Shown here piece after piece: positions 6,843-60,100 of a stretch of 64,000 nucleotides of DNA. The notes beneath the pieces are model-generated. The model had not been told where the DNA came from. It did no database searches and worked only from the letters and a program-made list of their open reading frames with translations. Location of the stretch: NCBI GenBank assembly GCA_947460245.1, contig CANHGL010000001.1:200437-264436 (forward strand). The letters are read 5' to 3'. The stretch comes from Sphingobacteriales bacterium (lineage in GTDB: Bacteria; Bacteroidota; Bacteroidia; Chitinophagales; JADIYW01). The position numbers and the translations under genes are program-made. Every line of letters starts with the position of its first letter. Positions within the stretch are counted from its first letter, which is position 1.

Positions 6843-6899
6843 ACCCGAAAATACTGAATTTGAGGAATACTATTAACAAATAAGGGATAGAATTGTTGC

Positions 6900-9926: not shown

Positions 9927-9927
9927 T

Positions 9928-16788: not shown

Positions 16789-16790
16789 AT

Positions 16791-20168: not shown

Positions 20169-20253
20169 ATATACACCAAATATACGGTAATTTTTTAGTG
20201 CCCTTGTGATCAAGACTTCAAATTTGGACTAAAAAATAAATAGGTATCGTTAT

Positions 20254-22457: not shown

Positions 22458-23810
22458 TCAGGCTGACTTACGATTAGATATAAATGGGAGATACATCAAG
22501 GTATATCCAAATTTTCGCTTTATATAAACTACCCCTATGATATTCCATGCAATCATACTGATTGTATTAGCAAATGCGGCACCTGAAATACCATACTTTG
22601 GAATCAAGAGAAGACTTACAAAAATATTCATTACAGCACCAAAGAGAGAAATATTCCTAAACTGCTTATGATGCCCCGTTGCATTTAGCAGTTGTGCCAC
22701 AGGTCCGCATAGCGTGTTAAAAATCTGACCTGCGGTAAGAACAGAAAGAGCAAATGCACCCGTCATGAATGCAGAACCATACAGCCACATTATATACTTC
22801 GAACAAAAGAAGAGTAAAAGAAAAATAGGCAAACTTAAAAGAAAGATCAACTTGGCAAACTTCTGTATTATGCGTTGCACTTCTGCATGTTGTCCTTGTG
22901 TATAAAGCTGGGTAATTTTTGGCTGTACAGTAGTATTTAATGCAACAAGAAATGTAGCCGCCAGCATAGAAATATTGGTACAAGTCTTATAGATACCTAC
23001 CTGATCTGTTCCGACGCCAAAAGCCTTGAGTAAAAAAACATCTGCACTATTGACTACTAAAAAAGCAGCGTATGTTATAAACATTGGATATGCTATTGCT
23101 AAAATCTCTTTATCCTTTACCTCTACCAGTATGGGCTCTTCTTTAGAGGGCTTAATAAAATATTTATATATGGGAATCAAGGAGAATAACCAGGGCAACA
23201 AACATAAAGTAGTCCAATGCAAATAAATCGGATTATTGCTATTAAAGTAAAAATAAGTAATCAGAAATAAGATAATTATTCGGATGACCGTTGGAGTAAT
23301 CAGCGACACATTGGCAGCATGCGCCTTTAATAATGCTCTAAGGCTAAAATTATTTAACTCTCCGAGCACAAGAAAAGGAAGAAAAAAAGCAGAATAGCGG
23401 AATACAAAAAGCATATCCGGCTCCTTCCAATATGCTGATAAATAGGGGGCTATAACAAACAAAAAAATACCTCCTATAACAGAGAAATAAATAATCAGTC
23501 TATTTGCTCTTTGTAAAATTCTATAGGCTGTCTTCAGGTTATATCGTTCGCGATATTCTGGAATCAACTTCTGTAGTGCATCTTTTATTCCAAAATTGAT
23601 GAGCATTGCAAGGATACTCATCACTGTAACTAGAAGGGTAAGTCGGCCTGAAGCTGTTGCACCGTAAAATCTTGCAATCAGTATTCCAGATATAAAACGT
23701 AAACCTTGCACCAGAAGTAAAGTAAGTGCGGTGGAAAGGCTTCCTTTCAGGATAAAACTGAAGTTTTTGTCCTGCAGAAGTTGGTGTATCTTTTCTTTAA
23801 TTGTATACAA
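22458..23810 (-). CDS. wzx: Wzx-type oligosaccharide/polysaccharide flippase (MOP superfamily)
   Basis: 450 aa, about 12-14 TM helices, with typical RfbX/Wzx N-terminal (LKGSLSTALTLLLVQGLRFISGILIARF) and C-terminal regions. It is the first gene of the 12.5-kb minus-strand operon. The start codon is TTG. Confidence 0.7.
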   Translation of the reverse strand: MYTIKEKIHQLLQDKNFSFILKGSLSTALTLLLVQGLRFISGILIARFYGATASGRLTLLVTVMSILAMLINFGIKDALQKLIPEYRERYNLKTAYRILQRANRLIIYFSVIGGIFLFVIAPYLSAYWKEPDMLFVFRYSAFFLPFLVLGELNNFSLRALLKAHAANVSLITPTVIRIIILFLITYFYFNSNNPIYLHWTTLCLLPWLFSLIPIYKYFIKPSKEEPILVEVKDKEILAIAYPMFITYAAFLVVNSADVFLLKAFGVGTDQVGIYKTCTNISMLAATFLVALNTTVQPKITQLYTQGQHAEVQRIIQKFAKLIFLLSLPIFLLLFFCSKYIMWLYGSAFMTGAFALSVLTAGQIFNTLCGPVAQLLNATGHHKQFRNISLFGAVMNIFVSLLLIPKYGISGAAFANTISMIAWNIIGVVYIKRKFGYTLMYLPFISNRKSA

Positions 23811-23922
23811 ATTATATGTGCTAGTATATGTGTTGTAAAAATAGGCATTGTATTTAATCGATGTACATGGCTATTTTTTATTATTTTTAAGCGCAGATAG
23901 CAACGGTAACCAAATATTAGGC

Positions 23923-25434
23923 ATGCTTTTTAACTCATTACATTTCTTACTGTTCTTTCCCATCTTTTGTTATCTCTATTTTTCGGTACCAAAAAAGCAT
24001 CAATATAAAGTGTTGATAGCCGGAGGGTATTACTTTTACGGGAACTTCAGTCCTTTCTTTGCCATCATTCTATTCATTATTACTTGTAATGATTTCTTTT
24101 CTGCGAAAATGATGGACAGGGAAGACTCCCAGCAAAAGAAAAAGAAATGGCTATACTTGAGTATGCTTGGTAATCTGGGTATTTTATTCGCTTTCAAATA
24201 CCTTGATTTTGTAGATGACAATATTCGTGCGCTATTACAAGTATTTCATATTGTTTGGGTTGTTCCTGAGCCCTGGTTTAACACCTGGATAGTACCCGTA
24301 GGTTTATCTTTTCTTACTTTTCAATCACTAAGCTATACTATTGACGTTTACAAAGGTCTCACGAAAGCAGAAACGCAATTTGGTTATTTTGCTGCCTTTA
24401 CTGCTTTTTGGCCGGTAATGGTAAACGGTCCGATTGAAAGGGCTAAGAACCTACTACCACAGATCCGACAAACGCATGATTTCAATTATGATAATATGCG
24501 AAAGGGATTAATAAGAATGACATGGGGCTTATTTAAGAAAGTGGTAATTGCAGACAGACTCTCCTTTTATGTAAATGACATGTATAGTCATTATAACGAA
24601 GTGAGCGGATGGACCATCTGGATGGGTGCTTTCTTCTTCCTGCTACAGGTATATTGCGACTTCTCCGGCTACTCTGATATTGCATTAGGCGCTGCGAAAG
24701 TTATAGGTATTGACGTAATGGAAAACTTCAGAAGACCCTTCTTCTCTAAAAACCTTGCAGATTTCTGGACACGCTGGCATATCTCCTTGTCGACCTGGCT
24801 TACTGACTATGTATTTTTCTATCTCGGGGCCTATAAAGCAAGTAGCATAAAAGTGGTCTTTAATGTAATTTTTGTACTCGCGCTATGTGGCCTATGGCAT
24901 GGTGCCAACTGGCCTATGGTTATCTCTTTTACAATGGTGGGTATCTGCATGGCTATCCGTTATTTATGGCAAAACAATGTAGTAAAAGCAATTCGTCCTA
25001 GTAACATCTATAGCCTCTTTAGTCGTTATTTCCCTGGATGGGCGCATAGTATACTCACCATTCTTATCTTTTTATTCTGCTTCTTATTATTTAGAGTATA
25101 CAGTGCACAGGTTACTATTAACCATATGCATCCCGAGACTTATACAGAATGGACTACCATAGCAGGATCTCTCTATGGAAAGCTTTTCCACCTCTTATCT
25201 GCTAATTATTTCAAGGAATTGATATTGATTAAGGGCATTATTGCTTTTATTCTATTGATCATTTTTATTGTCATCTTATTCCTCACCGAAGCGTTGATTG
25301 GCGACAGAAAGATAGAGGATGTATTATTAGGTCAGGATAGAATACAGGGTTGGTCAATCTATGCGGTACTACTGATATGTATTATATGGTTTGGTATTTT
25401 TAACAACACCACATTCGTTTATTTTCAATACTAG
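23923..25434 (+). CDS. MBOAT family O-acyltransferase (AlgI/DltB-like), copy 2
   Basis: MLFNSLHF N-terminus at ATG 23923 (the track ORF starts at TTG 23848), WTRWHISLSTWLTDYVFFYLG, and the conserved-His box CGLWHGANW. Confidence 0.85.
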   Translation: MLFNSLHFLLFFPIFCYLYFSVPKKHQYKVLIAGGYYFYGNFSPFFAIILFIITCNDFFSAKMMDREDSQQKKKKWLYLSMLGNLGILFAFKYLDFVDDNIRALLQVFHIVWVVPEPWFNTWIVPVGLSFLTFQSLSYTIDVYKGLTKAETQFGYFAAFTAFWPVMVNGPIERAKNLLPQIRQTHDFNYDNMRKGLIRMTWGLFKKVVIADRLSFYVNDMYSHYNEVSGWTIWMGAFFFLLQVYCDFSGYSDIALGAAKVIGIDVMENFRRPFFSKNLADFWTRWHISLSTWLTDYVFFYLGAYKASSIKVVFNVIFVLALCGLWHGANWPMVISFTMVGICMAIRYLWQNNVVKAIRPSNIYSLFSRYFPGWAHSILTILIFLFCFLLFRVYSAQVTINHMHPETYTEWTTIAGSLYGKLFHLLSANYFKELILIKGIIAFILLIIFIVILFLTEALIGDRKIEDVLLGQDRIQGWSIYAVLLICIIWFGIFNNTTFVYFQY

Positions 25435-25438
25435 GGAA

Positions 25439-26521
25439 ATGACAAAAAAAATACTGAAAAATATAATTATTCTATTGTGCATCATATTGCTGCTATCCAC
25501 ACTAATAAATATGACACTTCCATTTTATTGGGGTGATACAACACAAACACTAAAATTTGATTTTTATAAAAAGAATAGCGAAAAATTTAATGCCGTATAT
25601 CTTGGCGGTAGCTTAGAATACCGACATGTTGACCCTTATGTTATAGACAGTGTACTTCAAAAGAAAGGCTATGATTTTCGCTCCTTTAATATTGCTGCCG
25701 ACGGACACACTATTATAGAAGAGATGACAGATCTTGACGGATTACTAGCCGTACATAATCCAGATCTGAAATATATATTTTTCAGCATCAGTAGTGAGCC
25801 ATATTTTTTTCCTGCTAATTTGCACACTAGCAAATGGGTTTCCTGGCATTCTGCCAAGTCAACTATTCATGCTTTAAAAATTATTCCTACACTTCCCGAC
25901 GACTTGAGAACACGTGTGAAGTTCTGCTATTTCTATGTGATAAGCTGGTTGGAAAACCTATTCAAGTTGGGACAAATGCCCGAAGTGATTCGCTACTACT
26001 CCCAAAGAGACACCTATAATAAAAACTACCTGGGAACTAAAGAAAACGGATTTTATCCATATGACGATGAAGAAAGTCATTCTTTTATGGAATACAAATG
26101 GGAAGACACACTAATACGTAAATCAAAGGAAGAATACATCAACAATTCCTCCAAAAGGGATAGCTTAACTAATGACATTATATCTAGTTTTGAAAATTAC
26201 AAAGACGCTGATAAGGCAAATGCCGCAATGGTAGCCTTATGCATGGAAGCTTATAAGAAATGTGCAAAAAAGGGAATTCAATTATTTTTTATTCTGCCGC
26301 CACGCGCCAGGACTAATTATACTCTTCTGCTTCCTGTATTTAATACAATGCCGGAGGGAAGCAAGATAGAAGTTGCAGACCCCAGAAAATACCCTAAATA
26401 TTATGAGGTAGATTATGGCTATAATTTCCATCATTTAAATGATAAAGGCGCACGGCTACAAAGCATAGACATGGCTAAACAGCTAGTGGAACTAATGAAA
26501 GTCCAACGAGATACACTATAA
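25439..26521 (+). CDS. MBOAT partner protein, DltD/AlgJ/SGNH-like (pair 2)
   Basis: ATG 25439 lies 4 nt after the MBOAT stop. N-terminal TM helix, VYLGGSLEYRHVD (Ser block) and YNFHHLNDKG (His block). The layout matches the pair-1 partner. Confidence 0.5.
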   Translation: MTKKILKNIIILLCIILLLSTLINMTLPFYWGDTTQTLKFDFYKKNSEKFNAVYLGGSLEYRHVDPYVIDSVLQKKGYDFRSFNIAADGHTIIEEMTDLDGLLAVHNPDLKYIFFSISSEPYFFPANLHTSKWVSWHSAKSTIHALKIIPTLPDDLRTRVKFCYFYVISWLENLFKLGQMPEVIRYYSQRDTYNKNYLGTKENGFYPYDDEESHSFMEYKWEDTLIRKSKEEYINNSSKRDSLTNDIISSFENYKDADKANAAMVALCMEAYKKCAKKGIQLFFILPPRARTNYTLLLPVFNTMPEGSKIEVADPRKYPKYYEVDYGYNFHHLNDKGARLQSIDMAKQLVELMKVQRDTL

Positions 26522-26531
26522 CCATAAGAGA

Positions 26532-27029
26532 TTAAATCTCACCCACCACCTGATGCACCTTAAAGGTATAATAGCGTTGATACAGATAAGAAAAGGTAAT
26601 TACAAAAATCGCAGCAAAGAGTTTCGATGGCAGTGGATAAAAATGGAATACTTCTATAAATATTTTTATAAAACCTATATTCAGCAACGTACAAATAAAA
26701 ACACCTGAAAGATACCTGAATAACTGGAGCCTCACATGCACCGGAGAATTCACCCATACCACATATCTGCTCATATAAAAACCTGTAGGAAAACTCAAGC
26801 CGAAAGAAATAAAGAATGCAGCAATATGTGGACTAAAGGTGTAAAAGGGCGTTTTGAAGTTTTGCTCATGGAATAGATAATGATAGGCAATGTAGAACAC
26901 TAACGTATCTAAAAATAAATTGATACCTCCACATGCCATATATAAATACTCCTGTTTCGGAATAAACTTAAAGAACCAACTTCTAATTAGCAATAATGAT
27001 TGCCTTATGAAATCCGCCATTATGATCAT
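26532..27029 (-). CDS. GtrA family membrane protein
   Basis: 165 aa with 4 TM helices. The LYMACGGINLFLDTLVFYI opening and the size fit GtrA-like proteins. It is the last gene of the wza-PKS operon. Confidence 0.6.
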   Translation of the reverse strand: MIIMADFIRQSLLLIRSWFFKFIPKQEYLYMACGGINLFLDTLVFYIAYHYLFHEQNFKTPFYTFSPHIAAFFISFGLSFPTGFYMSRYVVWVNSPVHVRLQLFRYLSGVFICTLLNIGFIKIFIEVFHFYPLPSKLFAAIFVITFSYLYQRYYTFKVHQVVGEI

Positions 27030-27790: not shown

Positions 27791-30700
27791 TTAATTTTCC
27801 TGCTTATTAATGGAAGGCAGGCGCTTATCTATTTTCTTAAACCATCGCATTAAAATACCATCTTGAGCCTTGATTTCGTGCCAATCTTGCTGATTATTAT
27901 CTGCCATTTCTTGTGCAAACATAACATCAGCTAATGTTACTGCCTGAGTGGTATCTACTGCTCCACCTCCAAAAAAAGTTTCTAATAAATACTGATATAA
28001 ATCTGAAGGAGTATTGTATTGATGAAGAACCTGCATGCTTAATTCAGCGTCTACATGTTTTTCCATTAAACTTAAAAACTCACCGCTCATCATGCTATCA
28101 AATCCTTGCTCCCGATAAGTTTTATGAAGATCTACCTTCTGGCCTGCTTGCAGCCCCAATACTTTGGCTGCTTCAAGTTGCATATACGCTAATAAAGTCT
28201 CCCGTGTAGCCCTTTTAGCAGGGATACTTATCTCCTGACGAACGGCTGTTGTAGCTAAATATGTTGTTGTCTTGTGCATAAACACAGGATCATCCCAGTA
28301 TACCCTTCTGTCCCAAGCGTAAGTAGGCAACTGCACGCGATTGATGCTTTTGCCGCCATATAACCTTTGCCAGGCTATAGAGATCCCTGTAGTATATAAT
28401 TGTTGTAGCGTTTCATTAAAATACTGAACATCTTCTGTGTCTTTTTTAGCCGAGGACAACCAAACTCCATTTGAATCTGTATTGGTCTGCTTAGCCAAAC
28501 TTATTAAGACAGGATTAGGCCCAACCTCTAAGTAGATGGAGACACCCATAGTATGCTGGATCCATTGGATACCGGCTGCAAACTGCACAGCACCACGTAT
28601 ATGATTGGCAAAATAAGTAGCAGTTAGATCCTCCACGTTTAGCGGTTTACCTGTAAGATTGGATATCACCGGAATCTCAGGCTGTCTAAATCTAAACTGC
28701 TGAACATATACTGTGAAGTCTTCCAGTATCGGCTCCATTAAATGGGAATGGAAAGCATGAGAAACATTTAATGCTATTGCTCTTATCTTTTTTTCTTTAA
28801 GCTGCTCTACAAATTGTTCTACCGCTTTTTTATTTCCGGATATCGTACAGTTTTTAACTGAATTTACTGCAGCAAGATCTATAGCCGTTCCTTCCAGAAG
28901 CGGCCTTAAGTCTTCGGCACTACAGAAAACAGAGGCCATGCCGCCTTCTTGCTGTGGCAGTGTATTCATGAATGTTGCTCTGGCTACTACTAGCTTAAGT
29001 GCATCTGATACATCCATTGCATTAGCTACCGCCAATGCTACAATTTCTCCAATACTATGACCTATCAATACAGTGGGCTGAACGCCATAGTGCATCCATA
29101 ATTTGGCCATTGCATATTCTACCACAAATAATGCCGGCTGAGTAAACTTTGTCTGATGAATCAAATTACTGTCACCGTCCTGTTGCCATAGTATATCTTT
29201 TATTGATACGCCAAGAAGCGGGCGAAGAACAAGATCACACTCCTCTACCGAATTTCTAAATACTTCAAATCCGTCATAGTACCCTTGAAACATTCCAAAA
29301 TACTGAGCGCCCTGTCCAGTAAATAAAAAAGAAAGCTCCTTCCCGCCACGTAACTCAGGATTAGAGACTATATAGCTATTCGATACTACACCATTTAGAA
29401 ATGATCCTAAACCATCTTGCAATTCTTCTTTTGTATTTCCTAAAATAGATAATGCATAATCAAAATGATTCCTGCCAGTTTGGAGCGTGTTGCATATCTC
29501 TGTTAAAGTGTATCTATCCCATATATTGACATTATTTAAATATCGCTGTGCTATTCCTCTAAGACTATCCTGATTCTTGGCACTAATGATAAAATGAAAT
29601 GGACCTACTGTATCTTCCGATTTACATTTCGGCTTAGGCGCTTCAAAAATCATATGTACATTAGTGCCGCTGTATCCCGATAGATTTATAGCAACAGCAA
29701 TAGGCTTATCAGAATTGGAAAGATCAACGGGTACTGTAGAAACACAGGTATTTATTTTATCCCACTCCACATCCTCGTTCAGTGTATTGATATTGATCTG
29801 TGCAGGAATTCTTTTATTGCGAACAATCTCTATCAGCTTAAACAGCATCGGCATTCCGGTTGCTGCTTCCAGGTGCCCGATATTTGCCTTTACAGAGCCA
29901 ACATAAATTGGCGTATTCCTTCCTAGATAGCCTTCGTGAATAGACTGAATCTCTATTGCATCTGTAAATCTATTTCCTATACCATGCGACTCCACATAAA
30001 GAATATCCTCTGCCGATAGTCCGGAATCCTTAAGTGCTTCCTTTATTGCCAAAGTGATTACTTCCGGATTGGGAGCTGTGAATCCATTGCTGCTTCCATT
30101 GTGCTTTACTGCAGAACCTTTAATAACTAACTCTATATTGTCATTATCTCGTTCTGCATCGCTTAATCGCTTTAACAAGGCGACGCCACAACCCTCCCCT
30201 CTAATATAACCATCCCCATCATTAGCGAACGCTTTACACTGATCAGAAGAAGAAAGTGATCCTAATTTAGAGAGTCCGACAAACATCTCTGGTGTCAATA
30301 ATAAGTTAGCAGAAGATACTACTGCTAAGTCAATCGTATTCTTTTGTAAATCTTCTTTTGCGAGATGCAATGCCAAAACTGTAGATGCGCAGGCCGCATC
30401 CACATTATAGCTTGGACCCGTAAAATCATAACTAAAAGAAACACGACCACCGGCAGTTCCGAATAAGATACCTGTCGTATCATATACATCTACAAGTTCT
30501 AAATTGCCACTTCTAAATCTCGCTGAAATATAATCTGAATTGCCAAGCGCTATATACACTCCTGTGTTGCTTCCTTTCAGGCTTTCAGATGGTATCGCTG
30601 CATTTTCGAAAGCTTCATAAACAACTTCCAGCACCATACGTTGCAATGGATCTAAGGACTTTGCTTCACGTGGTGCAATAGAAAAAAAAGCGGCATCGAA

Positions 30701-31042
30701 ACTCCGTACGTCATTTTCTAACAAAGTGGCAAACCTTGCATTCGTCTTTCCAGGCTTATGCTCATCGGAGTCATAAATGGAGTCTATATCAAATCTATCT
30801 ACTGGAAATTTCCTGGATACCGATTTCTCGGCTTGCAAGAGCCTCCATAGTTGCTGGGTAGTATCTATATTATCAGGTAAGCGAACGCCACATCCAACTA
30901 TGGCAATTGCCTCTTTTTGTTCAGAAAATACTGTTGAAATTGTATGTTCTTTTACAGCAGCTAACTGACCTTCCAATGTCTTAATTTTTATTAGAGACTT
31001 CTGGAGCACCTGTTGCATCTGCTGTAATTGTTCGTTCGTCAT
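27791..31042 (-). CDS. type I polyketide synthase module 2: N-docking coiled coil, KS-AT-ACP, no TE
   Basis: KS: VDAACASTVLAL (Cys ~218), ESHGIGN, NIGHLEAATG. AT: GHSIGE and SHAFHS. ACP: GFDSMMSGEF. The N-terminus MTNEQLQQMQQVLQKSLIKIKTLEGQL is coiled-coil-like. About 70 aa of unassigned tail follow the ACP. Confidence 0.9.
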   Translation of the reverse strand: MTNEQLQQMQQVLQKSLIKIKTLEGQLAAVKEHTISTVFSEQKEAIAIVGCGVRLPDNIDTTQQLWRLLQAEKSVSRKFPVDRFDIDSIYDSDEHKPGKTNARFATLLENDVRSFDAAFFSIAPREAKSLDPLQRMVLEVVYEAFENAAIPSESLKGSNTGVYIALGNSDYISARFRSGNLELVDVYDTTGILFGTAGGRVSFSYDFTGPSYNVDAACASTVLALHLAKEDLQKNTIDLAVVSSANLLLTPEMFVGLSKLGSLSSSDQCKAFANDGDGYIRGEGCGVALLKRLSDAERDNDNIELVIKGSAVKHNGSSNGFTAPNPEVITLAIKEALKDSGLSAEDILYVESHGIGNRFTDAIEIQSIHEGYLGRNTPIYVGSVKANIGHLEAATGMPMLFKLIEIVRNKRIPAQININTLNEDVEWDKINTCVSTVPVDLSNSDKPIAVAINLSGYSGTNVHMIFEAPKPKCKSEDTVGPFHFIISAKNQDSLRGIAQRYLNNVNIWDRYTLTEICNTLQTGRNHFDYALSILGNTKEELQDGLGSFLNGVVSNSYIVSNPELRGGKELSFLFTGQGAQYFGMFQGYYDGFEVFRNSVEECDLVLRPLLGVSIKDILWQQDGDSNLIHQTKFTQPALFVVEYAMAKLWMHYGVQPTVLIGHSIGEIVALAVANAMDVSDALKLVVARATFMNTLPQQEGGMASVFCSAEDLRPLLEGTAIDLAAVNSVKNCTISGNKKAVEQFVEQLKEKKIRAIALNVSHAFHSHLMEPILEDFTVYVQQFRFRQPEIPVISNLTGKPLNVEDLTATYFANHIRGAVQFAAGIQWIQHTMGVSIYLEVGPNPVLISLAKQTNTDSNGVWLSSAKKDTEDVQYFNETLQQLYTTGISIAWQRLYGGKSINRVQLPTYAWDRRVYWDDPVFMHKTTTYLATTAVRQEISIPAKRATRETLLAYMQLEAAKVLGLQAGQKVDLHKTYREQGFDSMMSGEFLSLMEKHVDAELSMQVLHQYNTPSDLYQYLLETFFGGGAVDTTQAVTLADVMFAQEMADNNQQDWHEIKAQDGILMRWFKKIDKRLPSINKQEN

Positions 31043-31048
31043 TCAGGA

Positions 31049-34000
31049 TTAATTTACCTTATCGCTTAATTGTTTTAAGAGCTCCTCTAAGCTCAGCGCT
31101 TCTACTTCCGATTCGATAGCAGATTTTTCTTTTACTTCCATCAGACTTGCAACACTATTAAATTGTTGTTCTATTTTCAATTCTTTCGCCAGAAAGTCTG
31201 CTAATTTATTAACAGTAGGATAGGACCAGATAACAGAAACATTTAAACTTACTTTAAGGTCTTTCTGTAGTTTATTTTTAATCTGCAAAGCTAACAAGGA
31301 ATCAATACCATAACTCTTAAAGGTGTCCTCCTCTCTGATCTTGTGTTGATTTATTTTTGTTACAGAGGCGATAGCTTGTTTTATCTCTTGCTTTAAATAT
31401 TTAGTTGCTGCAGACAAATTAGCAAACGTCATGGATGTCGTATCCTCCGGAGTTTCGGTAGCTGCACTCAACACTTTAGATAAAATAAAATTATTTTTTA
31501 CATCCGGATTGCTGGCGACCCAATGATCGAAGTTAATATCCGCTGCTATAATCTGATCCAAATTACTCAAGAATAGTTTATCGAAATAATGATGTAATGC
31601 TGCGGAAGGAATGGGAACTAACCCAGATCCCTCGAGACGTTTTCCCCGATTATCATGACGCGCAGCCAATCCGACATCTGCAATAGTACCCCAATTTACA
31701 GACAAGCCCGCCATGTGATTCTTCCTTCTGAATGCAACCAATGCATCCAGAAAAGTATTAGCCGCTGCATAGTTGCTTTGTCCTGCCGAACCCAACACAC
31801 CGACTATAGAAGAATAGACTACAAAAATATCCAGGCTATCTCCTGGGAATAGGCGATGTATATTCCATGCACCATTTGCTTTAGGATATAAGGTATGATT
31901 GAACTTATCTTCTGTGCTATTCTCCAGCAATGCATCATCCAGTACTCCTGCTGCATGAAATACTCCTTTGATTTCCGGATGCATTTTTCGTATTTCTTCT
32001 ATGGTGTGCTGAAGGGTGTCAAAATTGGCAACGTCCGTAATATAAGAATGTATATGTACTCCGGCCAAAGCCTCTGCTTCTTTTTGTATAGCTGCTTTAA
32101 ATCCACTTCTACTTAATACAGCAATATGTCTCGCTCCTTTTTCCGCGAGCCACTTCACAGTTTCAAATCCCAGTCCATCATTACCTCCAGTTACAATATA
32201 GGTGGCCTCTGATGAAATGGTTTTCCCTAGCTCCTGATTTTCAGATTGTATAATGGCTGGTGCATATACTTCACTACCCCGAAGCGCCAACTCTTTATAT
32301 AGGGGGTCTGCAAAAGCAAGTGAAGGAATATTATTTATCTCCGTTTCTTTTATTTGTGCTGACAAATCTAATTGCACAAATTCCACGTTTGAATATTCGT
32401 ACTGCAGCGTTCTTATAACACCCGTCAACAAAGCTGCATTGAGATTTATCTGCTTATCCTCCGCAACATCCTTTAGTATATTAGCTCCATTAGTGATGGT
32501 AACTACCTTCAACTTTTTGTCGCCAAAATATTGTAGTATCCTTTGTAAAGATCCCACTCCTGAATTATAAGAGCAATTATAGATATCCTCTTTATGTAAA
32601 CTGCCAAGATGAAGGATACACGTAGCTTCTATACCAATAAGGTTCTCCTCTACACCTACTACACTAACTTCGCAACCCATCTCTAATAATCTATTCTCTA
32701 CTTCCTGATAATAGCCGTATGCATCTTCTATAATTAATATCTTTTGGGCAGATAGTTTAGGTTTTATCACTATGCTATTCCAATGTATCTCAAATAAATT
32801 TTCTTTTATACTAAACTGACTTTTCAATGACGCTTCCGTCAGCTTCTGTTCTACCTCTATCCAGTATCGTTCTTTTTGCCAGGCATAAGTTGGCAGCTCT
32901 ACAAATGCACCAATAGATGGATAAATGTTCTTCCAGTCAAATGGAACACCGCAAGAAAACAATGCTGTATAGTTCTTATAAAACTCTATTTGCTCGTTTC
33001 TGTCTCTTACATAAGAACCTATCACTTCGGAATTATTACTGACATCTTGTAAGTTCTCCTGAATAGCCATGAGAAGCGTAGGATGCGGGCTCATCTCTAT
33101 ATACACTGCATTATTGAGAGATGCAATGCTTTGTATAGCATTACCAAATTGAACAGGATTTCTCAAGTTATTACCCCAATATGCTGCATCCAATTCCTCT
33201 CCGCTCTTTATTTGATTAAATGCTGTTGAATAAAATTGAATAGAAGAATTTTTTGGCTGTATATTTTGAAGGCTACTTTTTAATTGCACTCTGATGTTAT
33301 CCATCTGAGGAGAATGGGATGCTACATCTACTTTTACTTTTCTGTTAAACCTTCCTTCTGCTTCCAGCTTGGAAAAAATCTCATCCAATGCGTGTGGATC
33401 ACCGGATAACACAGTGGCATTCTTACTATTCATTACGGCTACAGATAACTTGTCCTCATAGCCCTTCAAATATTCATTCGCTTCTTCCACCGTCAAATCT
33501 GTAGCACCCATTTCTCCTCTTCCACTTACCTGCTGCATCAAGTTACTACGCGTGATAATAATCTGTGCTGCTTCGTGTAGCGAAATATTTCCGGCAACAT
33601 AAGCAGCAGCTACTTCTCCCATACTATGTCCAACAACGATATCCGGAAACACACCCTTGCTCATCCATAAACTTGCCAATGCTATCTCTACAGCCACCAA
33701 TGCTGGCTGTACAATACCTATCTCGTTTAAACGAGAATGCTGTTCTTCTTTTTCAAGTTCTTCTAGTAAATCCCAGTCTACATATTTTTTATATACTGTA
33801 TTAATTTCCTCCAAGGTTGCCCTATAGACCACCTCCTGTTGCATTAAAGCGTTGCCCATCTGAGCCCACTGTGCGCCCTGACCGGGAAAAACAAAAACTG
33901 TTTTAGGTTCATCTTCTTGGTCAAATATTTTTTTGCTCTCGTAAGTTGCCGCTGAGACAAAATCACTCAACTGCTCTTCTAATTCTGCTTTATTTTTTGC

Positions 34001-35509
34001 TACGAACACCTCACGCACAGGAAAGTGCGTTCTGCGCAAAGCAGCCATAGCGCAAATATCCTCGAGAAGATAATCTGAATGAGTAATAAAATCGAGATAC
34101 TTTTTTACCAGTGCAATAAGTGCTTCTTCGTTTTTTGCCGACAAGGGAAGTATGAAGATATCATCTCTAACCTTATCTGTTTTTTCTGATGAAAGCGCCG
34201 GAGCTTCCTGTATGATAGCATGTGCATTGGTTCCGGTTATTCCGAATGTATTAACCCCGGCAATACGCGGTTTATTATCCGGCCATGGCATTGGCTCCTT
34301 AGGTATAGTAAGTCCTATATCATCCCATGCAACTTTAGGATTTGGATGATCGAAGTGCAAGCTAGGAAGAATCATATTATGTTGAATAGATACAACTGTC
34401 TTCAACAAACCCGCTAAGCCCGCTACAGCTTCTGTATGACCAAAATTAGTTTTAACAGAGCCTGCATAAATCTTATCTTCTTTAGTGCGATGATCCGAGA
34501 ATGCATTCCATATAGATTTTATTTCTGCGGGATCGCCAGCCTTCGTTCCAGTTCCGTGTGCTTCTACGTATATAATATCATTCGGGTCGATACCAGAACG
34601 TTGTATGGCTTTTCGAATCATCACCTCTTGCGTGGTAGCACTTGGTGCAAAAAGATTCTTGTGGGATTGACCGTCGCTATTGCAAGCTGTAGATAAAACC
34701 ACTGCATGAATTCGATCGCCTGCTTTAACTGCATCACTTAATCTTTTTACAATAATCATGGCGGCACCTTCACTGCGCACATAGCCTGTAGAACGTTCAT
34801 CACCAAACCTACATTCTCCATATTCAGAAAGCAATCCTGAGCGCGAATAGCCAATAGAGACAAAGAAATCTGTTATCGTATTGGAGGCCCCTACAAAAGC
34901 CATATCGCACTCTCCCGTATTTAAGCTCTGAGAAGCAATGTTAAGTGCTACCAAAGAGGAGGAACAGGCAGTATCTACTGTAAGAGAGGGACCTTGCAAA
35001 TTAAAGATATAAGATAACCTTCCTGATAATGCATAACGTCCACTTCCGGTAGTAGCATATACATCAATATCCTGATTACCATCTTTAAGCCTATGCTCAT
35101 AATCGCTGGTCCAGTTACCTACGAATACCCCTGTATTAGAACCTTGTAATACCTCATCTGTCAACCCTGCATTTTCTATAGACTCCTGGGTAACCTCTAA
35201 CAGCAAGCGCTGCGCAGGATCTATTTTTTCAGCCTCTAATGGAGAGATATTAAAGAACGCTGCATCGAAATACTCTACATTTTCTATGAAGCCTCCACGC
35301 TTAGTGATAATCTTATTCTTCTCTCTGTCCTTATTCACTAAGGCATCGAGATTAGGGATACGCGAAGCAGGATAATCAGTTATAGCATCTGTCTTATTAA
35401 TCAACAACTTCCATAAATCATCCAAAGAGTGAACGCCTCCCGGGAATCGACACCCGATGCCTATAATAGCCAAGGGTTCCAACCTGATATTGTTTAATTC
35501 CGGGTTCAC
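31049..35509 (-). CDS. type I polyketide synthase module 1: KS-AT-KR-ACP
   Basis: KS: VDTACSSSLVAL (Cys ~182), EAHGTGT, NFGHTEAVAG. AT: GHSMGE and VASHSPQM. KR: YIVTGGNDGLGFE, AAGVLDDA, SSIVGVLGSAGQSNYAAAN. ACP: YGIDSLLALQ. The start codon is GTG, and the stop lies 6 nt before the module-2 ATG. Confidence 0.9.
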   Translation of the reverse strand: MNPELNNIRLEPLAIIGIGCRFPGGVHSLDDLWKLLINKTDAITDYPASRIPNLDALVNKDREKNKIITKRGGFIENVEYFDAAFFNISPLEAEKIDPAQRLLLEVTQESIENAGLTDEVLQGSNTGVFVGNWTSDYEHRLKDGNQDIDVYATTGSGRYALSGRLSYIFNLQGPSLTVDTACSSSLVALNIASQSLNTGECDMAFVGASNTITDFFVSIGYSRSGLLSEYGECRFGDERSTGYVRSEGAAMIIVKRLSDAVKAGDRIHAVVLSTACNSDGQSHKNLFAPSATTQEVMIRKAIQRSGIDPNDIIYVEAHGTGTKAGDPAEIKSIWNAFSDHRTKEDKIYAGSVKTNFGHTEAVAGLAGLLKTVVSIQHNMILPSLHFDHPNPKVAWDDIGLTIPKEPMPWPDNKPRIAGVNTFGITGTNAHAIIQEAPALSSEKTDKVRDDIFILPLSAKNEEALIALVKKYLDFITHSDYLLEDICAMAALRRTHFPVREVFVAKNKAELEEQLSDFVSAATYESKKIFDQEDEPKTVFVFPGQGAQWAQMGNALMQQEVVYRATLEEINTVYKKYVDWDLLEELEKEEQHSRLNEIGIVQPALVAVEIALASLWMSKGVFPDIVVGHSMGEVAAAYVAGNISLHEAAQIIITRSNLMQQVSGRGEMGATDLTVEEANEYLKGYEDKLSVAVMNSKNATVLSGDPHALDEIFSKLEAEGRFNRKVKVDVASHSPQMDNIRVQLKSSLQNIQPKNSSIQFYSTAFNQIKSGEELDAAYWGNNLRNPVQFGNAIQSIASLNNAVYIEMSPHPTLLMAIQENLQDVSNNSEVIGSYVRDRNEQIEFYKNYTALFSCGVPFDWKNIYPSIGAFVELPTYAWQKERYWIEVEQKLTEASLKSQFSIKENLFEIHWNSIVIKPKLSAQKILIIEDAYGYYQEVENRLLEMGCEVSVVGVEENLIGIEATCILHLGSLHKEDIYNCSYNSGVGSLQRILQYFGDKKLKVVTITNGANILKDVAEDKQINLNAALLTGVIRTLQYEYSNVEFVQLDLSAQIKETEINNIPSLAFADPLYKELALRGSEVYAPAIIQSENQELGKTISSEATYIVTGGNDGLGFETVKWLAEKGARHIAVLSRSGFKAAIQKEAEALAGVHIHSYITDVANFDTLQHTIEEIRKMHPEIKGVFHAAGVLDDALLENSTEDKFNHTLYPKANGAWNIHRLFPGDSLDIFVVYSSIVGVLGSAGQSNYAAANTFLDALVAFRRKNHMAGLSVNWGTIADVGLAARHDNRGKRLEGSGLVPIPSAALHHYFDKLFLSNLDQIIAADINFDHWVASNPDVKNNFILSKVLSAATETPEDTTSMTFANLSAATKYLKQEIKQAIASVTKINQHKIREEDTFKSYGIDSLLALQIKNKLQKDLKVSLNVSVIWSYPTVNKLADFLAKELKIEQQFNSVASLMEVKEKSAIESEVEALSLEELLKQLSDKVN

Positions 35510-35555: not shown

Positions 35556-36614
35556 TTACTGATTTGCCATACGAAGCCTATCTTCCTCTCTACCATCTTG
35601 CACTGCTTTGCTCAACATCAGAGGAATAATAATCAAAACCAAACTCGCTACTATACCAATTGCCGTATACAGCAATTTACTTAAATATTTAGGAGCTGTG
35701 GAGAACATCGGGTCATCCACTGTTCTTACAATATTATTCTGTGGCGTGAGTCCTACTTTTGCATTCTCTCTGGACATACTCGCATCATTGTATAAAATAC
35801 TCAATGAAGCCAAATCCTGCATTAGTTTCTGTTGCGCTATAACATTCTCTCTCTTCTTGTTAAATATATTTATATCCTGTGATGCTGCTATCAATTGCTG
35901 CTTATTCGCAATTGCATTTGATATGGAATCCACTCTTCTTGAGGTATTCTCAAATGTGGTTTTTGCATTCTCTACTTGTTTATTCTGATAAAACTGTATC
36001 GTATATTTCAGCATAGCTGCACCAAGCTGTTTAGATAGCTCATAATCCGGAGTTTCCACTTCTGCCCTTATCATCCCGGTAGGAAGATCCAACTCTGCAG
36101 TCATCAAGCCATCGCTAAAATCATCATACATAGTAGAGAACAAATCCATCTCTTTCTTGCTAATTTCCCTTATAGAGTTAGCGGTGAACTTAAAGCCTTT
36201 CAACTCTGGATCATCTTCAAAACCATCGTCGTACTTATAGGCATGCATGTAAACATTAGCAATTTTTTCTCGCTTTCCATTGACTTCCATATCGGATAAC
36301 ATCGCATTGAGAAAGATAAATCTGGAGCTAAAGATTCCTGTTAATACATCATTAGATGAACCTCCGGAAAAAGAAATGCCCATCATAGACATGATACCCC
36401 CCATAGCACTGGCCTTGGAATCAACAGCATTAAACGAAATGTTTGCAATGTAAGTAGGCGGCGTAAGCTTAGCATAGAAATAGCCTCCTAAGGTTAATAC
36501 AAGCACCCCAACAACGGATATATACCATCGCTTCAATATGTATACTAAATAACTTTTAAGGGATTCTAATACATCCACTAACCGTATATCTTCTTCCGAA
36601 AATTGCTCTTGCAT
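35556..36614 (-). CDS. Wzz-type chain-length determinant protein (no tyrosine-kinase domain)
   Basis: Wzz N-terminal region (DIRLVDVLESLKSYL, then a TM helix), a long coiled-coil periplasmic segment and a C-terminal TM helix (LLYTAIGIVASLVLIIIPL). No Walker A/B motifs and no Tyr-rich tail. ATG 36614 lies 4 nt after the wza stop. Confidence 0.65.
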   Translation of the reverse strand: MQEQFSEEDIRLVDVLESLKSYLVYILKRWYISVVGVLVLTLGGYFYAKLTPPTYIANISFNAVDSKASAMGGIMSMMGISFSGGSSNDVLTGIFSSRFIFLNAMLSDMEVNGKREKIANVYMHAYKYDDGFEDDPELKGFKFTANSIREISKKEMDLFSTMYDDFSDGLMTAELDLPTGMIRAEVETPDYELSKQLGAAMLKYTIQFYQNKQVENAKTTFENTSRRVDSISNAIANKQQLIAASQDINIFNKKRENVIAQQKLMQDLASLSILYNDASMSRENAKVGLTPQNNIVRTVDDPMFSTAPKYLSKLLYTAIGIVASLVLIIIPLMLSKAVQDGREEDRLRMANQ

Positions 36615-36618
36615 ACGT

Positions 36619-39063
36619 TTATTTTTTAAGCACAAATATTAAGGTCAGCGTAGTAGCTATAGATGTCACTGCTGCGATAACACTCGGCAAAACTATATTC
36701 CAGTTTAATACAGACTCAGGTCCTTTCGGTGGCTTAGGTGCTTTATTCTTCATTTCCACTGTAATCAAAGCACCTTCCACATCTACTGTTGGATAATCTT
36801 TTATTCCTATGAAAGAGTGCGTATAATCCACTTTTCTGTTGGGATAAATAACCAAGGTAGAATTTTTATTAGCTCCCTTCTTAAAGCCTCCTCCATAATG
36901 TTTAATATACCATCTAGCACTTTTTCCGGGAACAAACTTACCGCTTACTGTTTCAGCGCTATCCAATTCAGGATATCGTATGGCACCTCTTATACTCACC
37001 AGCTGATTTACCGTTGGAATATCAATAGAATCTCCATTCTTTAAGAACATATTTGCCCTAGATAAGGTATCTCCAAACGCTTCATTGAGTTGAAAAATCG
37101 TTTTATTCAATGCTTTATCTGTTCGGGTTAAAGCCGCATTTTTTATAAAAGCATACGTCGTTAATCCACCGGCACGTTCAATTAAATCTAAAACCCTCTC
37201 ATGTTTATCGAGAATAGGATATACCCCAGGATACTTTACTTCTCCGGTAATAGTAACTGTCATCTGTTCATCAAAGCCATAAGCCTTACGCACGAAAACT
37301 TTATCCATCGGCGATAAAATAAACCCTTTGGATGTTTCATCCAGCTCAAGATTAGAGCCAATGGTAATGGTCTGAACCAATGCGCGCTGTGGCATGAATT
37401 TCTGTGCAGCAGAGGAGTCAATATTAATTACCCTCGAAATTTCTATTTTTGAATTTGCGGCCTCTTTTTTAAATCCTCCGGCATAAAATAATAAATCATT
37501 CAATGTCATACCCTCAGTATACTGCATCGTGTCTGATTTAATAACAGAACCGTCTATGGTAACCACAAATTTCTCAACGAAATTATCCTTTGAAAAAATC
37601 TGAATATTATCAAAACGTCTGAGCAGAATATTATCTGCACTTGTTTCGCTTTCCAAAATATTCTTCAATGAAAACTTCTGATTAACATAGGTATTGTTTT
37701 CCAGCGTTCTATTGATATAGGCTCTATCAAGATAAGCATCCAGTTTTATGCCTCCGGCCATCTTGATTACATCTGAAATTCTGTATCCTTCCTTCAACTC
37801 GTATTTACCCGGATAACGAACTGTACCGCTGATTTCGATATAGTTTTCTATTCCACCCGGTACTGAAGTAATGGTAACTACATCACCATCTTTTAAATCA
37901 AAATCCTTTCCGGACTTTATCAGTTGATCATAATCTATATCTAAAATCTGCGACTGATCATTACTGATTCTTGTAATCTGTATAGTTTTGGTATATGCTT
38001 CCGGAGCAAACCCTCCAGAAAAACGAATAAGTGTAGAGAGCTTCTCATTGTCTAATAACTCATAGCTGGATGGCCTACGAACAGCCCCCATCACTTTTAC
38101 TAGTTTCTTTTGTGTAGATACGTAAATGAAATCTCCTTTCTGAAGATAGAAGTTTTCCAACAGTAAAGGATTAAACAAAAACTCATAGACATCAAAACGT
38201 TTGATGGTTTTACCATCTCTTCTCACCTGAATATCTCTGACGCTACCAATATCTGTAATTCCGCTGGCTGCGTTGATGGCATTATATACCGAGTTCACCG
38301 CTGGAATCTGATACGTTCCTGGTGTAATTACTTCTCCAACAATATTAACCTCAATAGTCCTTGCATAATTCAATGCAATTTCATATTTAGTATTAGCAGG
38401 ATCAATGAAGGTGGCTAATCGCTTGCCTATTTGCGCCTTAACTGCCCCAAAGGTGAGTCCTTTTACATATACTCTACCAAACTCCGGTATTTGAATATAA
38501 CCATCTTCATTTACTTTAAATTTATTGTTGTAGTCTGCATCTCCATAAACAGAAATACTAATCTCATCCCCAACACCCAATACATAACTATCGGGAGCTT
38601 TTGCATCTGATGATTTAACAAATAAAGCCAGCTTACCTGTGCCAAAAAAATCATGTCCGAAAATACCTTTTGAAAGCGCTTCTTTATTGGTCTGTTTAAT
38701 GCGCTCTTGCTCCTGAGAAAGCGTTAACAATAAGGAATCTTTTGTTGCTTTAATTTGCAACAACATCTGTATCATATCCTGAGGTGCTAATCCAAGGTCT
38801 AACTTTGAATTCTGACTTTGATCCGCTTTATCTTTCAGGTACTTCTGAACGGCGGTAGGATCCAAGCCCAATAACTGCAATTGCGATAAACTTGAATTCA
38901 CAGCTGGACTGCTGAAACTCATTGACTGTAATTGCTTAGCTGCGCCTGCTGCAGCTGCAGTAACTCCTGTACCGGTTAAAGCACCAGAAAAATTTCCAAG
39001 GCTTTGGGAATGCATCGCCATTACCGAACAGAGCAGGAAACACAGCGTAACAAATTTTCTCAT
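36619..39063 (-). CDS. wza: outer-membrane polysaccharide export protein (Wza family, multiple SLBB domains)
   Basis: Signal peptide MRKFVTLCFLLCSVMAMHSQ. Poly_export-like YVLGVGDEISISVYGD, followed by repeated SLBB-like units (V.V.G.V..PG.Y.......L.D.I..AGG). Confidence 0.8.
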   Translation of the reverse strand: MRKFVTLCFLLCSVMAMHSQSLGNFSGALTGTGVTAAAAGAAKQLQSMSFSSPAVNSSLSQLQLLGLDPTAVQKYLKDKADQSQNSKLDLGLAPQDMIQMLLQIKATKDSLLLTLSQEQERIKQTNKEALSKGIFGHDFFGTGKLALFVKSSDAKAPDSYVLGVGDEISISVYGDADYNNKFKVNEDGYIQIPEFGRVYVKGLTFGAVKAQIGKRLATFIDPANTKYEIALNYARTIEVNIVGEVITPGTYQIPAVNSVYNAINAASGITDIGSVRDIQVRRDGKTIKRFDVYEFLFNPLLLENFYLQKGDFIYVSTQKKLVKVMGAVRRPSSYELLDNEKLSTLIRFSGGFAPEAYTKTIQITRISNDQSQILDIDYDQLIKSGKDFDLKDGDVVTITSVPGGIENYIEISGTVRYPGKYELKEGYRISDVIKMAGGIKLDAYLDRAYINRTLENNTYVNQKFSLKNILESETSADNILLRRFDNIQIFSKDNFVEKFVVTIDGSVIKSDTMQYTEGMTLNDLLFYAGGFKKEAANSKIEISRVINIDSSAAQKFMPQRALVQTITIGSNLELDETSKGFILSPMDKVFVRKAYGFDEQMTVTITGEVKYPGVYPILDKHERVLDLIERAGGLTTYAFIKNAALTRTDKALNKTIFQLNEAFGDTLSRANMFLKNGDSIDIPTVNQLVSIRGAIRYPELDSAETVSGKFVPGKSARWYIKHYGGGFKKGANKNSTLVIYPNRKVDYTHSFIGIKDYPTVDVEGALITVEMKNKAPKPPKGPESVLNWNIVLPSVIAAVTSIATTLTLIFVLKK

Positions 39064-46670: not shown

Positions 46671-46709
46671 TCCGTTTCTCGGTTTTAGTTTAACTAATAT
46701 CGGGCTTGT

Positions 46710-47291: not shown

Positions 47292-47343
47292 AATATTCTT
47301 TTATTTAAGGAAACACCACACCGTGGCTGTTTCAATTAAAAAT

Positions 47344-47973: not shown

Positions 47974-47997
47974 TTTCCTAAATTTTTAATCTATGTA

Positions 47998-59070: not shown

Positions 59071-59074
59071 CCCT

Positions 59075-60076: not shown

Positions 60077-60100
60077 GCAATTATTTTTAAAATAATATAA

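Follow-up and report, generated by a model that had tools for sequence, protein, structure and literature searches.

The 64,000-nt stretch of DNA analysed here (hereafter the window; positions 200,437–264,436 of contig CANHGL010000001.1, GenBank assembly GCA_947460245.1, Sphingobacteriales bacterium) carries two adjacent genes, PKS-1 and PKS-2, of a modular type I polyketide synthase (PKS). In a first-pass annotation made from the sequence alone, these were treated as a stand-alone two-module PKS. Comparison with related loci revealed instead that the pair is one length variant of a PKS cassette that is operonic with genes for a Wza-type export protein and a polysaccharide co-polymerase (PCP)-like protein. 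The window holds the local form of this cassette, in which mnmE adjoins the series Wza, PCP, PKS, type II thioesterase (TE; missing from the window) and 4'-phosphopantetheinyl transferase (PPTase), accompanied by genes for an MBOAT protein, a DltD-like protein, a Wzx flippase, a GT4 glycosyltransferase and an AT3 acyltransferase. The cassette is confined to Chitinophagales/Saprospirales-type Bacteroidota. The reading tentatively favoured here is that the polyketide chain stays on the acyl carrier protein (ACP) of PKS-2 and passes via the MBOAT/DltD-like pair onto the glycan exported by Wzx, PCP and Wza.

The operon runs on the minus strand, divergently from mnmE, and converges on the plus-strand MBOAT/DltD-like pair, beyond which lie the genes for Wzx, AT3, GT4 and a PhoD protein secreted by the type IX secretion system (T9SS), followed by a second MBOAT pair and more membrane proteins. 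The genes of the conserved part, apart from mnmE, are:

36619..39063, minus strand: Wza-type outer-membrane export protein, first gene of the operon, with Poly_export and five SLBB domains (Pfam)
35556..36635, minus strand: PCP/Wzz-like protein with two transmembrane (TM) helices, conserved between Wza and the first PKS gene
31049..35509, minus strand: PKS-1, 1486 aa, GTG start
27791..31042, minus strand: PKS-2, 1083 aa
27069..27764, minus strand: Sfp-type PPTase, directly after PKS-2 (Pfam, NCBIfam)
26532..27029, minus strand: GtrA-family membrane protein, last gene of the operon
25391..26521, plus strand: DltD-like partner with an N-terminal TM anchor; likely start at 25439; Ser58 and His332 invariant
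23848..25434, plus strand: DltB-like MBOAT with the catalytic-His motif FWTRWHISLS and a C-terminal FVYFQY; likely true start near 23923
22458-23810, minus strand: Wzx flippase, conserved beside the cassette
21250-22428, minus strand: AT3 acyltransferase, conserved beside the cassette
20254-21246, minus strand: GT4 glycosyltransferase, conserved beside the cassette

In total, 43 loci bearing PKS-2 were compared by tblastn and all-against-all clustering, the window being counted for every family except TE. Genes for PPTase and TE were each found at 24 loci, PCP-like genes at 20, Wza and mnmE at 18 each, the DltD-like family at 17, MBOAT, Wzx and GT4 at 15 each, AT3 at 12, GtrA at 11 (ten related loci and the window) and PhoD at seven. 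The Wza-PCP pair lies immediately 5' of the first PKS gene at PKS-2 identities of 43–100%, among others in L004 (43%) and L081. In one genome, it precedes a lone fully reducing module (L082), while PKS-2 (L085) stands by itself on that contig, at a distance of about 100 kb. In the resolved loci, the cassette has two or three adjacent PKS modules; elsewhere the modules are scattered.

With Wza, a two-TM PCP and Wzx all present, the locus resembles those of Wzx/Wzy type with outer-membrane polysaccharide export (OPX)/PCP machinery; a Wzy polymerase and an initiating transferase were not identified in the locus. The PCP-like protein matches the Wzz family of Pfam only at E = 0.14, with no significant Pfam or NCBIfam match and no result from a sequence search of the Protein Data Bank (PDB), and its periplasmic region is read as putatively helical.

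Several further genes with possible glycan-related functions were observed close to the cassette. A PhoD-family phosphodiesterase with a T9SS C-terminal sorting domain (18252-20213, minus strand) adjoins GT4 here and in six related loci; it may act on a phosphodiester-containing polymer or just scavenge phosphate. Heptose-nucleotide genes (SIS/GmhA-like, NTP-transferase, HAD/GmhB-like and GHMP kinase) occur near pieces of the cassette in the window (57822-63448), in L085 (15831-18686, 2.5–5 kb from the solitary PKS-2) and in L080 (19304-21496, beside PCP/Wza), which hints at a glycan containing heptose. In two divergent cassettes, a sulfotransferase gene lies between GT4 and AT3 (L030, 19675-20541; L083, 4710-5528), which suggests a sulfated product in some lineages; the window has none.

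The two PKS proteins

PKS-1 and PKS-2 are neighbours on the minus strand with a gap of 6 nt, at exactly the coordinates given by the first-pass annotation. The GC content of the PKS region is 0.39–0.40, the flanks being marginally lower (window, ~38%). The domains and terminal elements of the two proteins, including ketosynthase (KS), acyltransferase (AT) and ketoreductase (KR) domains, are as follows:

31049..35509, minus strand: PKS-1, KS-AT-(psiKR)-KR-ACP and a C-terminal docking peptide (Pfam, orthologue alignment, PDB)
34349..35479, minus strand: KS1 (residues 11-387), Cys/His/His intact in DTACSSS, EAHGTGT and NFGHTE
32963..33898, minus strand: AT1 (residues 538-849), GHSMGE and VDVASHS (Pfam, alignment, PDB)
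31679..32206, minus strand: KR (residues 1102-1277), LDD and YAAAN, no Pro
31190..31390, minus strand: ACP1 (residues 1374-1440), GIDSL
31052..31147, minus strand: PKS-1 C-terminal docking peptide (…LSLEELLKQLSDKVN), conserved among orthologues
27791..31042, minus strand: PKS-2, N-terminal docking helix, KS-AT-ACP and tail (Pfam, alignment, AlphaFold)
30932..31036, minus strand: PKS-2 N-terminal docking helix (residues 3-37; AlphaFold), conserved in the 19-member alignment A1
29789..30913, minus strand: KS2 (residues 44-418), Cys217, His352 and His389 in DAACAST, ESHGIGN and NIGHLE
28382..29329, minus strand: AT2 (residues 572-887), GHSIGE and HAFH, both invariant
27977..28198, minus strand: ACP2 (residues 949-1022), GFDSMM
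27794..27976, minus strand: PKS-2 tail (residues 1023-1083), a disordered linker and then DWHEIK…D…L..WFKK.DK

Domain annotation with hidden Markov models, which had been proposed as a check on the two-module PKS read at 27791–35509, bore out both the domain order and the active sites. Pfam placed KS (11-387), AT (538-849), KR (1102-1277) and ACP (1374-1440) in PKS-1 and KS (44-418), AT (572-887) and ACP (958-1019) in PKS-2, with E-values from 1e-9 to 1e-87; neither protein matched the Pfam dehydratase (DH), enoylreductase (ER), TE, reductase (R) or condensation (C) domains. The ~250 residues between AT1 and the KR of PKS-1 lack a DH signature and are consistent with a KR structural subdomain. 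Both proteins show the characters of a cis-AT modular type I PKS, with KS Cys-His-His, in-line AT, an ACP serine and PDB matches to DEBS or CurL. According to sequence motifs and orthologue alignments, the catalytic residues are complete in both, and the earlier description of all KS triads as C/H/H, with HGIGN in PKS-2, is correct.

Inter-subunit docking elements were found on both proteins, based on alignment, the AlphaFold model and the CurL match. The C-terminus of PKS-1 is conserved among orthologues (consensus LSLEEL.K.L..KV), as is the N-terminal helix of PKS-2; this predicted pair, already noticed in the first-pass annotation, supports the module order PKS-1 to PKS-2. As also stated there, PKS-1 opens directly with a KS, which begins 10 residues from the N-terminus, has an active-site Cys rather than Gln and is preceded by no docking coil, as a first module.

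In AT1, GHSMGE and VDVASHS are invariant across 17 orthologues. The best solved matches of PKS-1 are DEBS modules and mycocerosic acid synthase (MAS), which rank above CurL; DEBS modules and MAS use methylmalonyl extenders. According to the literature, the VDVASHS-type motif marks the class of ATs for alpha-substituted malonyl (PMC7327777, PMC6490886), and a VASH motif also occurs in an isobutyrylmalonyl AT (PMC6490886). The VASH of AT1 had been noted before and its extender left open; the invariant motif and the DEBS/MAS matches narrow it to the predicted alpha-substituted malonyl class, with methylmalonyl as the most likely extender, and the final chain thus probably bears a 4-alkyl (methyl) branch. 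The LDD Asp of the KR is invariant in orthologues and the catalytic Tyr lacks a following Pro, and by the established KR fingerprint rules the domain is predicted to be of B1 type, giving a D-hydroxyl, in line with the previous B-type assignment. AT2 is, as judged previously from its HAFH motif, of the malonyl-CoA type, this motif being invariant in the family alignment.

The closest solved match of the KS-AT part of PKS-2 is CurL (PDB 4mz0), with an alignment that starts from residue 8, ahead of the KS. A scan of genome contigs with the single PKS-2 protein gave no matches, and one with the alignment did. About 100 full-length relatives (90%-identity clusters) share 43–67% identity with PKS-2; all are 1057–1101 aa long, and their named sources are Chitinophagales, Saprospirales, Sphingobacteriales or unclassified Bacteroidota metagenome-assembled genomes (MAGs). 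Beyond this family, the match list falls to generic PKSs at 30–37% identity. In the 19 members of alignment A1, the N-terminal helix, Cys217, HGIGN, GHSIGE, HAFH, the ACP serine and a C-terminal motif (DWHEIK…D…L..[FY]K+.D) are invariant. HGIGN is limited to members of the PKS-2 family, while more than 100 other KS domains in the 85 loci scanned all have HGTGT. The tail motif goes with HGIGN in nearly all full-length members, L027, L038 and L071 being outside the pattern. PKS-2 therefore belongs to a distinct terminal-module family set by HGIGN and the amphipathic tail.

The AlphaFold model of PKS-2 has a mean pLDDT of 82. Residues 1025-1051 are disordered, and the sole element of the tail is a helix at 1062-1073 (nt 27824-27859), which is amphipathic, with a hydrophobic moment of ~0.6 and a net charge of +3 to +5 in nearly all members. 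The model suggests a membrane-binding or docking helix. In the first-pass annotation, PKS-2 ended in an ACP and about 70 unassigned residues with no release domain; the latter holds, but the tail has 61 residues and ends in a single helix. A tail structure prediction had been suggested there and a cryptic TE or R domain considered, and such a domain is ruled out by the length, the disorder and the absence of domain matches. A phmmer search with the tail alone against 1.84 billion representative proteins returned seven matches, mostly PKS-2 family members or presumed fragments, with two weak partial ones in larger proteins; the occurrence of this tail on free carrier proteins elsewhere was accordingly discarded. 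A relic of a PKS-2 ACP and tail, frameshifted and interrupted by stops (…QGFDSMMSGEFL… / …LLRWFKKIDSKL), was observed in L078 at ~9990-10340, in a MAG that also has an intact PKS-2 (L052).

Priming, release and the MBOAT/DltD-like pair

A loading module (AT-ACP, KSQ, FAAL/CoL-ACP or GNAT) is absent from PKS-1 and from the scanned open reading frames (ORFs) of the window, which comprised nearly all of those of at least 120 aa, ORFs below ~100 aa being excluded. The same scans gave no AMP-binding/fatty acyl-AMP ligase (FAAL), thioesterase or carrier-protein matches, in agreement with the earlier statement that a starter AT, FAAL/CoA ligase and loading ACP are lacking. Among the 43 PKS-2 loci, clustering revealed no recurring family of FAAL, acyl-CoA ligase, free ACP or ketoacyl synthase III (KAS III).

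The number of modules varies among relatives. Two modules are found in the window, L007/L008 and L004, an additional KS-AT-DH-ER-KR-ACP module lies upstream of PKS-1 in L014/L081, L025, L001 and L003, and PKS-2 genes are solitary in L079 and L085. L030 was also considered to hold PKS-2 only; this was rejected, since the locus edge holds a KS (HGTGT) that follows Wza-PCP and is encoded on the other strand. The first modules of the window, L007 and L004 and the fully reducing modules begin with the KS and have no coiled-coil dock, while downstream modules carry an N-terminal dock; the absence of a loader is thus a family trait and not an accident of the window. In L009, L010, L013, L016, L021, L024, L022 and L035, PKS-1 has an N-terminal coiled-coil dock although its upstream gene is PCP. 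The partner modules of these docked orthologues are presumably encoded elsewhere, as in the genome of L082 and L085 with its scattered modules.

With no loader and no release domain in cis, the logical end product, on the domain order, would be an ACP-bound 3-oxo-5-hydroxyacyl thioester, as deduced before. The further claim that a thioesterase is lacking is true of the window, where the scanned ORFs gave no PF00975 or alpha/beta-hydrolase match and tblastn with the TE of relatives was empty, and of the independent Logan assembly L006, which has the same order PKS-2-PPTase-GtrA without TE. It is not true of the cassette: 26 related loci, including the closest relatives L007 and L008, carry a PF00975 gene of ~230 aa directly between PKS-2 and PPTase. 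Its product matches the surfactin TEII, RifR, RedJ, ClbQ, YbtT, fatty acid synthase (FAS) TEII and TesA and is, by these matches, a type II thioesterase. The loss of TE is specific to the lineage of the window, TE being otherwise standard in the cassette. The PKS has remained fully intact in the absence of TE, which speaks for an accessory editing role; such a role would explain why this lineage can do without the enzyme. Alternatively, TE may be the release enzyme, or a copy may lie elsewhere in the genome.

Release by a trans-acting MBOAT protein had been one of two routes put forward in the first-pass annotation, and it gains support from the DltB-like motifs, the DltD-like fold and the synteny of the pair. 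The best NCBIfam model of the MBOAT protein is DltB (TIGR04091, 4.9e-40, under the equivalog cut-off), its sole PDB relatives are DltB proteins, and the catalytic-His motif FW.RWH.SLS is kept. FVYFQY at its extreme C-terminus, and FIYFQF at that of the second MBOAT (16791-18224), are kept in orthologues. According to the literature, FxYxxF at the C-terminus of MBOAT proteins is an acyl-shuttle motif, and in the MBOAT/SGNH route the acyl group starts on a phosphopantetheine thioester in the cytoplasm, is carried by the catalytic His to a periplasmic Tyr and then passes to the SGNH Ser (PMC12148441). In the Dlt pathway, the carrier protein DltC serves as donor, and the shuttle Tyr belongs to the microprotein DltX; DltB/DltD is the single characterised MBOAT/SGNH pathway fed by a carrier-protein thioester, the others using acyl-CoA without a carrier protein (PMC12148441).

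The DltD-like partner has no significant match in Pfam and NCBIfam, relaxed thresholds included, or in a PDB sequence search. Its family comprises 67 protein clusters, and all given source names are Chitinophagales, Saprospirales or Bacteroidota. The AlphaFold model (pLDDT 92) gave twelve top Foldseek hits that are all DltD, with nothing else significant, at probabilities of 0.95–1.00 (1.00 for the first seven) and TM-scores of only 0.33–0.39. The order AT3-AT3-sulfotransferase-GT4-Wzx, MBOAT-DltD-like, PPTase-TE was found in L083, where the DltD-like homologue is 35% identical and no PKS gene lies within 10 kb either side of the MBOAT/TE/PPTase group; the carrier-protein enzymes TE and PPTase thus stay with the MBOAT module. 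DltC, DltA and DltX were not detected among the scanned window ORFs (DltX is of the size below ~100 aa that the scan excluded), the only carriers among these being the PKS ACPs.

The second MBOAT pair (15790-18224, minus strand), consisting of a 477-aa MBOAT and a TM-anchored 332-aa partner (GGS…YHLN), was observed only in the window's version of the locus. The 332-aa partner matches the profile of the DltD-like family weakly (probability, 32%).

Possible product and its acceptor

From the gene content, the conserved synteny and the fold and motif assignments, we infer the acyl donor and acceptor, the primer and chain length and the role of the tail as follows. KS1 would be primed in trans, since there is no docking coil and no upstream partner, either with a short acyl group from its own decarboxylated extender or from an acyl-CoA or acyl-ACP. 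The extender loaded by AT1 would be a malonate with an alpha substituent, probably methylmalonate, and reduction by the B-type KR would give a D-3-hydroxy-2-alkyl intermediate. The chain would then cross the docking pair to KS2 and be extended once with malonate to 3-oxo-5-hydroxy-4-alkylacyl-S-ACP2, at which stage it would halt because there is no KR or TE. The cationic amphipathic C-terminal helix would keep ACP2 on the cytoplasmic face of the inner membrane, where the phosphopantetheine-bound chain would enter the MBOAT tunnel. There, the catalytic His would pass it to the FVYFQY Tyr on the periplasmic side; the Ser of the DltD-like protein would take it over next, and its last acceptor would be the glycan that Wzx flips and PCP/Wza export. 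In relatives, the type II TE would act as an accessory editing enzyme.

In favour of such glycan acylation count the retention of Wza-PCP upstream of the first PKS gene even at the lone-module site, the loss of TE with the rest intact, which fits an editing role, the origin of both the DltD-like and the PKS-2 families from Chitinophagales-type Bacteroidota only, and the conserved cationic amphipathic tail, found in the PKS-2 family only; the synteny of the MBOAT/DltD-like pair with TE and PPTase fits an ACP as the putative acyl donor. A Bacteroidota precedent for a short ACP-made hydroxyacyl decoration is the 3,5-dihydroxyhexanoyl group of the Flavobacterium psychrophilum O-antigen, which is predicted to be made by two KS and a KR with a dedicated ACP and to be transferred from the ACP to a sugar (PMC6519341). 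Its wfpC-wfpG genes likewise specify, by prediction, two condensations and a ketoreduction on a dedicated ACP within a polysaccharide locus (PMC6519341), but the enzymes are discrete ones of type II, and the N-acyltransferase, which modifies a UDP-amino sugar, is soluble and PglD-like, whereas the cassette has a modular type I PKS with one KR (so that the last keto group would stay), a probable methyl branch and membrane acyltransferases.

The nearest parallel to the proposed transfer is the Dlt pathway. In both, a phosphopantetheinyl carrier adjoins a DltB-like MBOAT with the catalytic His, and the TM-anchored partner of the cassette has DltD as its only significant structural match; the Dlt pathway moves an acyl group bound as a thioester in the cytoplasm to a polymer outside it (PMC12148441), as is proposed for the cassette. 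In contrast to the Dlt pathway, the cassette has no DltA or free DltC, so that a type I PKS ACP would be the carrier and putative donor, and no DltX, because its MBOAT bears a fused C-terminal shuttle (FVYFQY) as in PatA/AlgI. It also belongs to Gram-negative Bacteroidota with Wzx/PCP/Wza rather than teichoic acids, and the acyl group would be a polyketide instead of D-alanine. With a C-terminal shuttle of the form FxYxx[FY] and the catalytic His, the cassette MBOAT has the characters of the PatA/PatB-AlgI type.

Several points weigh against the proposal. Exopolysaccharide loci often hold ordinary O-acetyltransferases, the window also has a second MBOAT pair and AT3, and about half of the PKS-2 loci have no MBOAT within 10 kb, some carrying AT3 instead (L024). 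The predicted links between PKS, MBOAT pair and glycan are those of synteny and fold similarity, the DltD matches having low TM-scores, and the fused shuttle, as read from the sequence, is typical of the acyl-CoA-using PatA/AlgI and not of the DltX-dependent DltB. An initiating phosphoglycosyl transferase was not found in the conserved part of the locus, the type II TE, near-universal in the cassette, may be the real release enzyme, and a beta-keto ester on a glycan would be chemically labile.

Both the presence of PKS genes within capsule loci and the ACP-dependent acylation of glycans have precedents, and no description of the cassette, the HGIGN terminal-module family or the DltD-like family was found in the literature. 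What would be new, in a combination that is put forward with some caution, is envelope acylation by a non-Dlt MBOAT/SGNH pair fed by a carrier protein and the replacement of DltA/DltC by a modular type I PKS, both of them firsts; a helix-held ACP2 would yield a "polyketidylated" surface polysaccharide with a side-chain length set by module number. If glycan acylation is correct, the cassette would join assembly-line polyketide synthesis with the acylation of cell-envelope polymers, fields that seldom meet, and represent a new chemical class of surface-glycan decoration in abundant environmental and wastewater Bacteroidota. On this condition, the HGIGN terminal module, the membrane-targeting tail and the "missing" release domain would likewise acquire testable roles. 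Such a PKS-fed pathway would be a counter-example to the rule that non-Dlt MBOAT/SGNH systems operate without a carrier protein (PMC12148441), and a demonstrated hand-off from carrier protein to MBOAT would make the cassette much more notable.

The main alternative, itself rather unlikely, is that the PKS contributes a lipid. KS1 would be primed with a long-chain acyl-CoA or acyl-ACP, the PKS would add one to three units, and the resulting hydroxy/oxo acid, or a hydroxy-ketone formed by TE hydrolysis and decarboxylation, would be the anchor of a glycolipid or capsule that GT4 glycosylates, Wzx flips and PCP/Wza export. PKS-made lipids are known from mycobacterial Pps/Mas, and the WcbR and RkpA enzymes are single fully reducing modules from capsule loci with an ABC transporter (KpsMT/KpsCS-type) and an alpha-oxoamine synthase (AONS)-like transferase. 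For the WcbR/RkpA enzymes of proteobacteria, a lipid role has been proposed; as in the cassette, these type I PKS genes (Burkholderia wcb, Sinorhizobium rkp-1) sit within capsule polysaccharide clusters, lack a cis release domain and have a product thought to serve the polysaccharide (PMC3908369). A lipid would agree with the absence of a loader from every version of the cassette and of docking coils from first modules, the MAS/PpsC-like extra fully reducing module of relatives, the high score of PKS-1 against MAS, the TE matches to TesA, RedJ and FAS TEII, a single conserved glycosyltransferase and an amphipathic, membrane-binding tail that fits a hydrophobic product. It would, however, leave the MBOAT/DltD-like pair, which tracks TE and PPTase, without a role; module-number differences among close relatives would alter the anchor length, and Wza/PCP exports polymers, not lipids. 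Moreover, FAAL/acyl-CoA ligase, an AONS-like transferase of the RkpG/WcbT (aminotransferase) class, KpsC/S and an ABC exporter were not found in the ORF scans.

In comparison with WcbR/RkpA, whose HGTGT motif is intact (PMC3908369), the cassette has HGIGN in PKS-2 and specifies a line of several docked proteins, the last of them KS-AT-ACP; its locus is of the Wzx/Wza/PCP kind and also encodes MBOAT/DltD-like proteins, TEII and PPTase. The window PKSs lack DH and ER, although relatives of the window cassette do have one fully reducing module. If the lipid anchor is correct, the cassette would correspond, in Bacteroidota, to the capsule PKSs WcbR/RkpA, which are poorly understood. PpsA-E/TesA (phthiocerol) and Mas share with the cassette loader-less KS-first modules, including KS-AT-KR-ACP, a terminal KS-AT-ACP, a discrete type II TE and an envelope product; yet the Pps system depends on FadD26 (a FAAL), on Pap acyltransferases and on an exporter of the MmpL type, all of them lacking from the cassette, and taxonomy and genomic context are unrelated. 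CurL (curacin, class 2 docking), the best solved match of the PKS-2 KS-AT with an alignment reaching upstream of the KS, stands inside a long assembly line for a secondary metabolite, whereas PKS-2 is terminal, with HGIGN and the amphipathic tail.

The other route of the first-pass annotation, spontaneous delta-lactonisation, is chemically possible, but nothing in the analysis favours it. It belongs to an improbable explanation in which the PKS makes a free small molecule, either a 4-hydroxy-5,6-dihydro-2-pyrone or a beta-keto acid that turns into a hydroxy-ketone, released by the type II TE in relatives and spontaneously in the window, the glycan neighbours reflecting co-regulation or chance. 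The delta-hydroxy/thioester geometry expected from the domain logic permits lactonisation, 26 related loci have a discrete TE gene after PKS-2, and some relatives of this TE off-load chains (e.g., RedJ and FAS TEII). Nevertheless, the PKS is intact in the window though TE is missing, the Wza-PCP operon is kept over deep divergence with PKS genes translationally close-packed with Wza-PCP, and a soluble product needs no conserved membrane-targeting tail; nor did clustering of the 43 loci reveal recurring genes for a regulator, a receptor or efflux such as typify antibiotic or signal clusters. That the pair is a non-functional remnant after TE loss is very improbable: TE is missing in the window's lineage only and the L078 relic of ACP and tail shows that such genes can decay, but both ORFs are full length, all catalytic and docking residues are conserved, PPTase is kept directly downstream, and a TE gene may sit elsewhere on the 285-kb contig or in the remaining genome.

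Other genes in the window

Next to the second MBOAT pair, the segment 11313-15812 (minus strand) encodes two polytopic membrane proteins of 552 and 444 aa, each with about nine hydrophobic segments, and a 508-aa protein whose single such segment is N-terminal. These three and the 332-aa partner of the second MBOAT gave no significant Pfam or NCBIfam match, including at relaxed thresholds. From topology alone, the 552- and 444-aa proteins could be GT-C-like or Wzy-like and the 508-aa protein secreted, and the group is probably the variable distal end of the glycan locus.

A carotenoid-type set at 4355-8988 (minus strand) comprises two amine-oxidase/phytoene-desaturase-like proteins, a Rieske oxygenase and a PF04240 protein, and is followed at 9072-11310 by a short-chain dehydrogenase/reductase and an aldehyde dehydrogenase. 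T9SS C-terminal sorting domains are present among the window proteins, in keeping with a Bacteroidota genome, and T9SS cargo includes a 1139-aa protein with a PKD-like domain (52138-55557, minus strand) and a 129-aa protein (59687-60076, plus strand). An ExbB/ExbD/TonB set is located at 45861-48819.

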